The notes below the pieces were generated by a model. That model did not search any database and was not told the origin of the DNA. It was given only the letters and a program-made list of their open reading frames with translations. The translations under genes were made by a program, and so were the position numbers. Shown in pieces: positions 101 through 5,257 of a stretch of DNA of 25,730 bases. Positions within the stretch are counted from its first letter, which is position 1. Every line of letters begins with the position of its first letter. The DNA comes from a virus. Taxonomy: Duplodnaviria > Heunggongvirae > Uroviricota > Caudoviricetes. The stretch lies in IMG/VR virus record IMGVR_UViG_2713896781_000012; one strand, 5' to 3'.

Positions 101-508
101 TCATCCGTTCTGGCTGACTAAATCCTGTACTTCCCGAACCGTCTGCTCAAAACGTTCAGTCTCCAGCTCAACGCCAATTGCACGACGCCCGAGCGCCAGT
201 GCCGCTTTCACTGTCGAACCCGACCCCATGAAAAAATCTGCAATCAGGTCACCCGGACGACTGCTAGCGCTGATTATCTGCTGCAGCATTTCTGCCGGTT
301 TTTCGCACGGATGTTTCCCGGGATAGAACTGCACCGGTTTATGCGTCCAGACATCGGTATACGGCACCTGCGCCGTCACGCCAAAATACCGCCGCAGTCG
401 GCATTCACAACCACCAGCGCATTTAACGTTCAGGCACAAAAAAAACCGCTCATCGGCGGGTTTAAGCTGTGTGACGAAGTAACTACTCTTAACAGCATAA
501 CCAATTTT
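101..508 (-). pseudogene. 5'-truncated N6/N4 DNA methyltransferase (C-terminal half only)
   Basis: Translation contains HPCEKPAEMLQQIISASSRPGDLIADFFMGSGSTVKAALALGRRAIGVE, matching the HPTQKP...PGDLVLDPF.GSG...IGIE signature of beta-class N6/N4 methylases. No upstream DPPY-type catalytic motif: the frame hits a stop at 509-511 and the upstream 380 bp is AT-rich non-coding. The ORF track start at 439 is a TTG. Confidence 0.55.
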
Positions 509-889
509 TTACGTACGTAAACTACTAAATGATATTTGTGAGAATGCCACCGAGTGTTCAAAACACCACCACAAATACATAAGAAAACTTCAACAAATAA
601 CCAATAAATAATTTCGGATGTTATTTTTAGTTTGTTTAAATTAAGCTAAAGAATTATAGACTACTTATAAATAAGTGCCATTAATATAAATTAGCTAATA
701 GATTTATTTTTGTTCAAACAAGAGCCATGAATAGGATTAGATAGAAAAGGTTCAGATAAAAATAGAGATCTACTTCACAAATTAAATGAGAAACTAAAAC
801 TTACATCTTGAAATAATCACATTGATTAGATGAATATTTATCGCGCAGTGACATCATTTTTTTATAATAGTTCAAAAAAAGGGCGTACA

Positions 890-1972
890 ATGAAAAAATT
901 AACAGTGGCAATTTCTGCTGTAGCTGCATCAGTACTGATGGCGATGTCTGCTCAGGCAGCTGAAATTTATAATAAAGACAGTAACAAGCTGGATCTATAC
1001 GGGAAAGTTAATGCCAAGCACTACTTCTCCTCTAATGATGCAGATGATGGTGATACTACTTATGCCCGTCTTGGCTTCAAAGGTGAAACCCAAATCAACG
1101 ATCAACTGACTGGGTTCGGTCAGTGGGAATATGACTTCAAAGGCAACCGTGCTGAATCTCAAGGTTCTTCCAAAGACAAAACCCGTCTTGCATTTGCAGG
1201 CCTGAAATTTGGTGATTACGGCTCAATCGATTACGGCCGTAACTTCGGTGTAGCATACGACATCGGTGCGTGGACTGACGTCCTGCCAGAATTCGGTGGT
1301 GACACTTGGACTCAAACCGACGTGTTCATGACTCAACGTGCAACTGGTGTTGCAACTTATCGTAACAACGACTTCTTTGGTCTGGTCGATGGCCTGAACT
1401 TTGCTGCTCAGTATCAGGGTAAAAATGACCGCACTGACGTAGCTGAAGCCAATGGTGATGGTTTCGGTTTCTCCACTACTTATGAGTATGAAGGATTCGG
1501 CGTGGGTGCAACCTATGCTAAATCAGATCGCACTGACGGTCAGGTCGCCTATGGTAAGAGCAAATTCAATGCCTCCGGCAAAAATGCGGAAGTATGGGCT
1601 GCAGGCCTGAAATATGATGCGAACAATATCTATCTGGCTACCACATATTCTGAAACTCAGAATATGACCGTTTTTGGTAATAACCATATTGCAAACAAAG
1701 CACAAAACTTTGAAGCAGTAGCACAATATCAGTTTGACTTCGGTCTGCGCCCATCTGTTGCTTACCTTCAGTCAAAAGGTAAAGACCTTGGTGTTCATGG
1801 TGACCGAGACTTAGTCAAGTATGTCGATGTCGGTGCTACTTACTACTTTAATAAAAACATGTCCACTTTTGTTGATTACAAAATCAACTTAATTGACGAT
1901 AGTAAGTTTACCAAAACAGCTGGTATTGATACCGACGACATCGTCGCTGTAGGTCTGGTTTATCAGTTCTAA
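890..1972 (+). CDS. nmpC: Outer-membrane general porin, OmpC/OmpF family (prophage NmpC/Lc type)
   Basis: ATG at 890 preceded by a purine-rich stretch; signal peptide [23 protein letters not shown] then [16 protein letters not shown]; C-terminal ...VGLVYQF typical of porins. The in-frame upstream part of ORF 830..1972 is probably not translated. Confidence 0.9.
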
Positions 1973-2023: not shown

Positions 2024-2108
2024 AAGTGGAGCCCTCAAGCCACTTCCTTTAGAAGCACTACCTTGCTTCTTACTATATAAACCTTCTGTTATATATTACC
2101 CTTTATTT

Positions 2109-2133
2109 GGGGGCGTTTCCACGCCCCATTTTT
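2109..2133 (+). terminator. Intrinsic terminator on the plus strand (porin transcript)
   Basis: GGGGCGT-ttcc-ACGCCCC followed by ATTTTT on the plus strand, 137 bp after the porin stop. Confidence 0.55.
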
Positions 2134-2159
2134 AATAACTTTTAGTAAACAATTGCATA

Positions 2160-2543
2160 TCAATTAGAATTATTAGCAACGATATCCATATCTAACCGGA
2201 TATCTAATGCCATTAACATCCCTTCAATTATGCCCTCAGCCTTCTGTAACCTTTTCCCGATATAACCATCCGAGCAGCAATGCTTACTTGCCAGTGACAT
2301 GAATGTCATACCACATACATAATAATCTACTAATAAATCGTGTAAATCGCTGTTGTTCTTTTTCAGACGGGCCATGCACCCGCAAATGATCATCGCGTCA
2401 TCGTCACAACATTGCGGGCGAGATTTTACTTTTGAAGGAATTAATCCCTTAAAACCGGCAGCAATGGACGACCAGGTCACATCCTCATGATTATTTGCCG
2501 CCCATGCTCCCCAGCGTTCGAGAACCATCTGAATATCACGCAT
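2160..2543 (-). CDS. Late-gene antitermination protein Q (lambdoid Q family)
   Basis: [18 protein letters not shown]... with the WGAW motif and a Cys-rich segment as in phage Q antiterminators. ATG at 2543 with GGAGA 6 nt upstream; the ORF-track start at 2558 is a TTG. Lies between the replication genes and the late region. Confidence 0.75.
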
Positions 2544-2560
2544 CAACTTTCTCCACAAAA

Positions 2561-3556
2561 TCAGGACAGCACACCAATCGCCAGCGCGCGATCGATAAAA
2601 CGAAATATCAGCTCCAGTTGGGAACCATACTTCTCTTCAAATGCCACGGTATCCGCATGCAGTCCGTCATGGTGTTTTCTGCACAAAGGCAACACAAAAA
2701 GGTCATGCGCTTTTGTACCCATTCCACCCTAACCATGACCAATCAGGTGATGAGGATCGTCGGCTGGCTTACCACAACATGCACACGGCTGCGTCTTAAC
2801 CCAGCGCGTGTACTTTTCATTAACCCAGCGACGACGTTTGGGGCGTAACATAAAAGACTCCGGCGACTCCGGATCCACTTTCAGCGCCAGCACCTTTTTC
2901 GCCTTATCCCGGATGATGCTGGTGGCAGGAACCGAAGGCACAAGGTCACTTTCCCGGGTGACAGACGGCACAACAGGCTTCGGTAATCTCAGTGCCTTAC
3001 GGGCTGCACTTTCCGGTAAGGCATCCGCCAGGTCATTACGAACCAGCCACCAGCACAGTTCCGGCATTGTCACAACGTGGCTGTCATCAAAACCGAGATC
3101 ACGACGGACTACGGACAACACCCAGCGGGCACAGTTATCCGTTGCCATTGATTCCAGACGTTCCGTGAACTGATCGCGAAGCAGGTTATCGCAGTGCCAG
3201 CACAGACGGATTGCGCCCGGCGCGTGTCGCATTGTGGTCATGTTCTCGCTGTGCCATCCGGAATGAGGCCACTGGCAGCCTTTTTCACGAAGTAACCAGC
3301 TCTCAAGGCATTCCACGCCACCAGCACGACGGATCACCGCCTCATGGCGGAACACGGCCCGAACGGCAGGATCATCCGCCAGCGGTTGTGATGCTGCCGG
3401 AACGGCACCACTGGCAAAAGATGAATAACGTTCCGGCTCAGGCTCCAGCAGGACACGCCCCTGCATAAACAGGGGCATCAGCTCTGAACCGGGTCTGAAC
3501 AAGACGATCCCCATACGCGGGGCAATTTCAGGGGTCAGCAGTGCTCTCACGGTCAC
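2561..3556 (-). pseudogene. DUF968-like prophage protein interrupted by an in-frame amber codon at 2729-2731
   Basis: ORF 2729..3556 ends ...CACCGKPADDPHHLIGHG at TAG. The same frame continues for 55 codons ([55 protein letters not shown]) to TGA at 2561-2563, 17 nt before the Q start. The start at 3556 is GTG. Confidence 0.5.
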
Positions 3557-3602
3557 CTCAGCGAACGGTATTGCATGAACGCAGGAGAAAAAAATTCAGC
3601 CA

Positions 3603-3860
3603 TCACGCAGTAAACTCCTTCACCAGCGTTTCAAACTGGCTTACCTGTCCTTCCAGTTCCGCCACGCAATCCACCAGCTCATCCACCGCCTTTTGTGTGC
3701 GGTGTTTTGCCTGCAGCAGATCACGAAGCGCCGGAGTAAGCTGCTTGCGGAGCGTATCTTTTTTCACGCTCGTTTTTTCCATCTGTTCAGCACAACGAAG
3801 CATCTCCTGCGCCTGCCGACGAAGTTGTTCCGGTGAAACAGTGATTGTTCTGTTGTTCAA
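3603..3860 (-). CDS. Hypothetical protein, 85 aa, predicted coiled coil
   Basis: ORF starts at a TTG that overlaps the DnaB-like TGA stop (TTGA); same strand and coupling pattern as the replication operon. Confidence 0.45.
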   Translation of the reverse strand: MNNRTITVSPEQLRRQAQEMLRCAEQMEKTSVKKDTLRKQLTPALRDLLQAKHRTQKAVDELVDCVAELEGQVSQFETLVKEFTA

Positions 3861-5257
3861 AATAAACGCTCCGTTTTACTGCCCGACATGCGGTTATTGC
3901 TGTATCTGCGCGGATTGCCCGGCGTCATGGGTGTGGAAAGAACCCGGGCACTCTCCTGGTCCACAGGCAGAAAATGTCCGTTATGAAAACGCCGGTAAAT
4001 GGTCCCGAGTGTGCCATTACGCTGTTTCGTGATGTTGATTTCTGCTATGCCTCTGGCCTGTGTATCCGGGTTATACACCTCATCCCTGTAAAGCATCAGA
4101 ATGATGTCGGCATCAGCCTCTATTTCCCCGGAGTTTTTCAGGTCTGAGTTCATGGGACGTTTATTGGGTCTGGATTCCACGCCTCGGGAGAGCTGGCTCA
4201 GAGCAATCAGCGGGAAACCGCCGGATTTTGCCAGGCTTTTAAGTCCCTTTGAGATTTCCCCCACAGCAAGGTCGTGACGCCCCGTGCTGCGGGTTTTAAT
4301 CAGACCGAGGTAATCGACCACCACCAGCGCCGTTTCCGGGTGTTTCATCCGGTGGTGCTTCGTGGTTGCACATATCTCATCAATGGTCAGGTTTGCCTGA
4401 TCCACCATCCAGATATTACGCCCCGTCATTCGTCCCACGCCCTGCGAGAAACGCGCCCAGTCTTCATCTTCAAAACGGGCAACAGACTTAAGACGGGATA
4501 CCGGCATTCCACCGGCAGCAGACACCATACGTTCACCAATCTGGATGTTCGCCATCTCCATGGTGAACAGAAGCACGCCATGCCCCTGCTCAGTCACCTT
4601 GTCGATGATGTCCAGCGCAAGTTCGGTTTTCCCCATCGAAGGACGGGCGGCAATGAATACCAGGTCACCGGGCTCCATACCGCCCGTTTTTGCGTCCAGT
4701 TCATCAATACCGGTCATCAGCGCCCTGGATTTCTCCAGTCCCTGATTGCGGCATTCAACACGGTCGACCACTTCCGGAAGGACATCATCAATGTGAACCG
4801 GCTGAATGACGCCCTTTCCGGTCGACAGTGAGGCCATCATGTTCTGCACATCCTTCAGGGCATCCTCGGCTGCTTCACAGGTATACGCATCACGTAAATT
4901 CTGTAATGCTTCAGTCAGTGTTTTTTCTGCATCGCGCAGTGCGGCATTGCGCCGCAACGCTGCGACATAGTGCTCCAGTGAAGACTTCACCCAGGTTTTG
5001 CGTCCGGTGTCGGTAATCACCGGGGCAAGTTCCGGCATCTCATTGCACAGCAGTACGGGGTCAATGACGCCGGATATGCGAGCCTGTCTGCAAATCCCCG
5101 CGTAAATATCCCGGTACTGACGCACAAAAAATACATCCGCCGGAAGTGTGGCCAGAATATCCATCACTTCCGGATCGGCCCCACGCAGAAAAAACGCACC
5201 GATGACAGCGCCTTCCAGGTCATCGTTACGCCATGCCGGGGTGTTCTGGCTGGTCAT
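3857..5257 (-). CDS. Replicative DNA helicase, DnaB family
   Basis: 466 aa; Walker A AARPSMGKT and the DnaB-type C-terminal RecA-like domain (DYLGLI, SQLSR). ATG at 5257 overlaps the upstream stop as ATGA. Confidence 0.9.
   Translation of the reverse strand: MTSQNTPAWRNDDLEGAVIGAFFLRGADPEVMDILATLPADVFFVRQYRDIYAGICRQARISGVIDPVLLCNEMPELAPVITDTGRKTWVKSSLEHYVAALRRNAALRDAEKTLTEALQNLRDAYTCEAAEDALKDVQNMMASLSTGKGVIQPVHIDDVLPEVVDRVECRNQGLEKSRALMTGIDELDAKTGGMEPGDLVFIAARPSMGKTELALDIIDKVTEQGHGVLLFTMEMANIQIGERMVSAAGGMPVSRLKSVARFEDEDWARFSQGVGRMTGRNIWMVDQANLTIDEICATTKHHRMKHPETALVVVDYLGLIKTRSTGRHDLAVGEISKGLKSLAKSGGFPLIALSQLSRGVESRPNKRPMNSDLKNSGEIEADADIILMLYRDEVYNPDTQARGIAEINITKQRNGTLGTIYRRFHNGHFLPVDQESARVLSTPMTPGNPRRYSNNRMSGSKTERLF

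Follow-up and report, generated by a model that had tools for sequence, protein, structure and literature searches.

A prophage gene of the DUF968/YdfU family has, with a probability of roughly 90%, been inactivated by a recent point nonsense mutation, a C to T change that converts CAG (Gln274) into TAG. The gene lies in the nin-like region of a lambdoid prophage, with the DnaC-like and DnaB-like replication genes on one side and the antiterminator gene Q on the other, in a window of 25,730 nucleotides (the whole stretch of DNA that was analysed). The initial annotation of this DNA had left two options, a nonsense-inactivated gene or one whose expression depends on amber suppression. The evidence favours plain nonsense inactivation, because the allele differs by one base from an intact one, the stop is not conserved in relatives, no suppressor tRNA has been found in or near the window, and the locus is labelled as a pseudogene by PGAP.

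The truncated DUF968 reading frame (2732..3550, minus strand) comprises 273 codons from the start assigned by PGAP, a GTG at 3550. The minus-strand ORF 3556..2729 comprises 275 codons if counted from the mechanical start, a GTG at 3556 located two codons earlier. This frame encodes an N-terminal domain, a linker, and the first strand (PHHLIGHG) of a C-terminal His-Me finger, and ends at the in-frame amber codon 274 (2729..2731, minus strand, read from 2731 to 2729), which is CAG (Gln) in the intact allele. The mutated base is window position 2731, equivalent to gene position 820, with T on the coding strand and A on the plus strand. Past the amber codon this frame runs on without a stop for 55 codons (165 nt; 2564..2728, minus strand), which encode strand 2 and the helix of the beta-beta-alpha-metal finger, as well as two C-terminal helices, up to the original stop TGA (2561..2563, minus strand). 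This TGA is separated by 17 nt from the Q gene (QuuD; 2160..2543, minus strand, start ATG at 2543), which is directly downstream, and the spacer holds the GGAG Shine-Dalgarno of Q. For the identical locus, RefSeq places the end of the DUF968 gene at locus position 4020 and the start of quuD at 4038. Within the orphaned 3' part, gene callers report a separate small protein (P0149), encoded by a 53-codon ORF (2561..2722, minus strand) whose first ATG appears 6 nt past the TAG. The layout described at the outset (an ORF ending at TAG 2729-2731, 55 more open codons to a TGA, and 17 nt to Q) is thus reproduced, and re-translation gives exactly the peptide reported then, with HHLIGHG before the stop, GGMGTKAHD after it and LCRKHHDGLH further on.

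The open frame beyond the stop is not fortuitous. The chance of a random open frame of 55 codons, estimated earlier at about 7%, was recomputed as (61/64)^55 = 0.071, and this explanation is ruled out because the 55 codons show 100% identity with the C-terminus of an intact homologue and fall inside the Pfam DUF968 match. This match, obtained by reading the frame through the TAG, reaches 267 bits (PF06147, cutoff 27.8 bits, E 1e-79) over residues 162-328 and covers profile positions 2-171 of 171, so that the original description of a DUF968-like gene is borne out on both sides of the stop. The end-to-end match needs read-through of the TAG, and the two pieces also match DUF968 separately. A second profile, PF16784 (HNHc_6), scored 22.9 bits (E 7e-5), below its gathering score of 26.6, and, as a profile match, is to be read as a related-family signal only. 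Two findings had been named in advance as arguments against a disrupted gene: homologues that naturally end at HLIGHG, and a lack of similarity between the downstream codons and the C-termini of homologues. No homologue with a natural end at HLIGHG was found, the only short entry being the 272-aa P0027 (ending in HLIGH), labelled 'partial' by its source, and the downstream similarity to homologue C-termini is strong.

The single-base nature of the change is seen in the intact alleles. The CE10 gene (L007 2221-3210; WP_001202272.1), which encodes an intact protein of 329 aa, shows only one difference from the window gene in 990 nt, and this difference is the C to T change from CAG (Gln274) in CE10 to TAG in the window. 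The same CAG is found at codon 274 of three close alleles with 94-96% DNA identity (L002, L003, and L004) and of the one-mismatch matches that were fetched and compared (H43/L006 and H52/L007, the latter being the CE10 locus itself), in agreement with the early prediction of a Gln at the amber position. This Gln is typical of the close alleles of E. coli and Salmonella, and the family-wide column in a 40-sequence alignment contains Q, L, F or E. As for the TAG form, E. coli NMBU_W05E18 and U1 carry a locus that matches the 990-nt window gene in every base, and in two complete genomes PGAP/RefSeq gives this identical locus the label 'DUF968 domain-containing protein, pseudo, internal stop'. The phage collection contained no record at or above 99% identity; the closest records correspond to Stx2-converting phages and to the mitomycin-induced phage ASU11, sequenced phages in which the gene is intact. 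A Dcm (CCWGG) deamination hot spot was also considered for the C-to-T change, and it was rejected because the context GGTCAGGGT is not a Dcm site.

The segment that lies past the stop holds the most conserved residues of the DUF968 family. A whole-library search with P0004, a 329-aa homologue 98% identical to the repaired window protein, identified 3,091 related representatives, and in the 40-sequence alignment, whose members share 25-61% identity with this reference, 39 of the 39 other members continue through the stop position. In a larger alignment (A2, 44 sequences), D283 and P288 are invariant and K280 is near-invariant, all three being downstream of the stop, as are the near-invariant residues H294, H298, E305, G309, Q311, and G326. 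The AlphaFold2 model of P0004 (mean pLDDT 90.2) shows two strands (265-268, HHLI, and 286-289) and a helix (291-299) that form a beta-beta-alpha finger, with codon 274 in the inter-strand loop. A PDB search with the repaired protein as a single sequence returned only noise, and the family profile gave as its sole sequence match in the PDB the protein YbcO, a weak match (E 0.034) over residues 256-307, which is exactly the motif interrupted by the stop. The YbcO match and the model agree with a previous classification of DUF968 and DUF1364 in group 7 of the His-Me finger proteins, for which a role in recombination or repair has been proposed, similar to that of NinG and RecA-dependent nucleases (PMC5714182). 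A zinc-finger HNH motif has also been described in DUF968 proteins, together with fusions to recombination proteins (PMC4118853). The His/Cys-rich motif, taken initially for an HNH-type metal-binding site, is therefore supported as a predicted site by the P0004 model, the YbcO match, and this classification. The DUF968 finger, a predicted zinc-containing His-Me (HNH) finger at the C-terminal end, is according to the model most like those of phage P1 Ref and DLP12 YbcO, and the intact 329-aa protein would presumably serve as an accessory nuclease in recombination or DNA processing. A literature search found no biochemical data for a DUF968 protein.

The N-terminal half of the DUF968 proteins falls outside the Pfam coverage and is predicted at high confidence in the P0004 model. 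Near residues 90-125 of P0004, which correspond to about 3280-3175 of the window on the minus strand, the model contains a second strand-strand-helix (strands 104-109 and 112-117, helix 118-124) that surrounds the conserved motif CQ...RLCWHCDN, in which C117 is near-invariant. This region could represent a second, degenerate zinc or His-Me-like finger.

One alternative holds that the TAG is decoded, for instance as Gln by a supE-type tRNA or through context-driven leakiness, to give low and regulated levels of the full-length nuclease. This would be in keeping with a downstream frame that is intact and identical to that of the functional allele, and a supE suppressor would insert precisely the residue of the intact allele. 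Moreover, E. coli has a basal level of UAG read-through. However, programmed read-through is recognized by a stop conserved among homologues, and at this position the parent allele and all the relatives examined carry a sense codon (CAG in the close alleles, Q/L/F/E family-wide), a pattern contrary to that of recoding sites. The search for suppressor tRNAs was negative for the window and for the phage tRNAs next to it: ARAGORN detected no tRNA genes in the window, and none of the three phage tRNAs located just past its left end in the identical prophage (cat, tcg, and tct) has a CUA anticodon. Of 20,395 records, 155 contain an exact copy of the supE44 tRNA sequence; the 60 matches listed are all K-12-type laboratory strains, and neither U1 nor NMBU_W05E18 is among these 60 of the 155. 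Decoding of the amber codon is consequently regarded as very improbable, and plain nonsense inactivation is retained as the preferred reading.

In the proposed sequence of events, a recent C to T change at codon 274 of this DUF968/YdfU-family gene of a lambdoid prophage would cause a non-suppressor host to make a product of 273 aa. When mapped on the P0004 model, this product still has its N-terminal domain, CxCC cluster, and HH strand, and it is left without strand 2, the Cys/His-bearing metal/zinc helix, and the two C-terminal helices. Since the stop falls between the finger strands and removes all these elements, nuclease activity is presumed from the model to be lost in the 273-aa product. 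A His-Me finger is defined by a beta hairpin with the catalytic His and, after it, a ligand helix in one polypeptide, and the TAG allele does not encode both in one chain. The N-terminal domain, which the stop leaves intact, could still have a function. The remaining 165 nt would be an unmutated remnant, and the TAG allele would have been tolerated, because nin-region functions are dispensable for prophage carriage, and subsequently inherited and recombined into several prophage mosaics. We infer that the allele is neutral. A scan of positions 2100-3900 yielded 2 promoter-like sites versus 1.8 in shuffled sequence and 3 terminator-like sites versus 2.0; being no better than shuffled, it lends no support to polarity on Q or to an internal promoter for the 53-codon ORF.

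The TAG allele is not restricted to the window. The exact 81-mer that carries the TAG was found in 2 of 5,426 complete E. coli genomes, in a search in which 185 records showed 95-99% identity. The exact 273-aa truncated product (P0121) was present on 329 contigs (549 index blocks of the collection) from NCBI, ENA, and Logan sources, the product of the 53-codon ORF on 313, and the exact intact parent allele on 375. This near-equal frequency of truncated and parent forms shows persistence, although by itself it does not separate neutrality from benefit. In the seven TAG-bearing loci retrieved, the common order is Rha/Ash, replication, DnaC-like, DnaB, an 85-aa ORF, the truncated DUF968 gene, the 53-aa ORF, and Q, followed by a porin in the six loci that extend further. 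A base-by-base comparison without indels showed 1-3 SNPs with respect to the window in the core module of four of them (L009, L010, L011, and L015), and the flanks of L010, L012, L013, and L014 diverge from the window in a mosaic fashion. Because of this contig distribution, the shared module order, and the near-identical core with mosaic flanks, the mutation is real and inherited. The allele is old enough to have recombined into different prophage backgrounds, and young enough to keep an unchanged 3' remnant.

The possibility that a sequencing or assembly error created a false stop would agree with a change of a single base. Nevertheless, two genomes that were finished independently, one from Norway and one from Japan, both show this TAG, and the exact truncated protein occurs on the 329 contigs from three sources mentioned above. 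With so many independent assemblies, this explanation is effectively refuted, its probability being negligible.

Two further observations concern individual TAG-bearing or related contigs. In L014 (7001-7211, compared with window 2550-2340), identity breaks down 11 nt past the DUF968 stop, at the Q start, which suggests a recombination junction at the DUF968/Q boundary, a module boundary typical of lambdoid mosaicism. In addition, one ENA contig from outside the window encodes a separately called 53-aa downstream fragment (P0153) with a K to I substitution at the family-invariant K280 and a C-terminal end GVLA rather than GVLS. This variant may have arisen by additional decay following the stop, or another allele may have been disrupted independently.

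The persistence of the allele raises the question of whether it is dead at all. Either the 273-aa fragment could be useful in itself, as a nuclease-less N-terminal part with a DNA-binding or regulatory role or with less toxicity to the lysogen, or termination at UAG and reinitiation at the next ATG could give a two-chain His-Me finger, in which the 53-aa piece self-assembles with the 273-aa fragment. If true, this would explain the spread of the allele, with its undamaged 3' remnant, across hundreds of contigs and several mosaic contexts; moreover, the N-terminal domain is predicted with high confidence to fold independently, and the ATG 6 nt past the stop opens an intact 53-codon ORF. The 165-nt remnant indeed shows no further damage in the window, which fits a recent event and would equally fit continued use. 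However, this ATG is the Met of a conserved GGMG motif found in most homologues, so it was not selected for reinitiation, and no properly spaced Shine-Dalgarno was found upstream of the ATG at 2722. Furthermore, a split between the strands of a small zinc-stabilised finger would leave the Cys pair of the N-terminal side and the Cys/His ligands of the C-terminal side on different chains, and a two-gene arrangement is seen in no other member of the 40-sequence alignment. The analysis offers no support for translation of the 53-codon ORF. Taken jointly, these versions of a live allele are considered unlikely, and nonsense inactivation remains the preferred explanation.

Regarding the genomic context, the 100% match of the window to the U1/NMBU_W05E18 prophage stops at 17532, just past the integrase (16194-17507). 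Beyond this point U1 continues with yecE/yecN/cmoA, and the window (17533-25730) with the cargo end of a second lambdoid prophage, which indicates a strain with tandem prophages. This cargo includes two NleG type III effectors (18358-19008, minus strand, and 21289-21936, plus strand), an IpaB/EvcA-family ORF (20515-21105, minus), a Mutator-family transposase fragment (23412-23759, plus), and fragments of Lom (23833-24159, minus) and of the tail-tip protein J (24703-25560, minus). Judging from this gene content, the strain is probably an attaching/effacing pathogen. On the other side, downstream of Q, the opposite strand carries a phage-borne porin gene of the OmpC/Lc type (830-1972, plus strand), and after it comes an N6/N4 DNA methyltransferase truncated at its N-terminus (101-439, minus strand), which PGAP annotates as a pseudogene with 'missing N-terminus'. 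The truncated methylase adds a second indication that this prophage module has decayed or been rearranged; CE10, with its intact DUF968 gene, has the same truncated methylase.

The allele is thus a real pseudogene of an ordinary kind, with a single-base nonsense change in an accessory gene of the prophage, and its status was already known, as it is flagged in RefSeq/PGAP. Its proper annotation is one pseudogene, as given by PGAP, rather than the pair of 'hypothetical proteins' (273 and 53 aa) that several older assemblies list. What this analysis adds is a structural argument, based on the model, that the DUF968 proteins of Stx-type and lambdoid prophages would carry a Ref/YbcO-like HNH finger. 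Beyond annotation hygiene the significance is small. The allele shows that the DUF968 function is dispensable for prophage carriage, and it represents a natural knock-out that can be compared with the isogenic CE10-type allele for the role of DUF968 during induction.

Among known systems, the closest are YdfU, from the Qin prophage of E. coli K-12, and the 329-aa DUF968 proteins of lambdoid and Stx prophages, which belong to the same Pfam family, are encoded directly upstream of Q, and share with the window frame the C-terminal motif CxCCG...DDPHHLIGHGQGGMGTKAHDLFVLPLCRKHH.ELH. YdfU (349 aa) has a diverged N-terminal half, and DNA similarity covers only the last ~30% of the query, with ~86% identity. 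YdfU and the CE10-type genes are intact, whereas codon 274 of the window gene is TAG and the last 55 residues are not made. YbcO (DLP12 prophage, DUF1364, PDB 3g27) is a single domain of 96 aa without the N-terminal domain of DUF968. Similarly, P1 Ref (PDB 3plw), an HNH-family RecA-dependent nuclease, lacks the ~220-residue N-terminal region of the DUF968 protein; the likeness of DUF968 proteins to Ref is one of predicted fold only, and it rests on the model of the homologue P0004, not on the truncated product. Finally, the classical amber mutants of lambdoid phages, such as lambda Sam7, Oam29, and Pam80, are laboratory-selected conditional mutants in essential genes. Like them, the window gene holds a single in-frame UAG and its product would be restorable in a suppressor host; unlike them, it is a natural allele of an accessory gene in a resident prophage, and nothing points to a suppressor.
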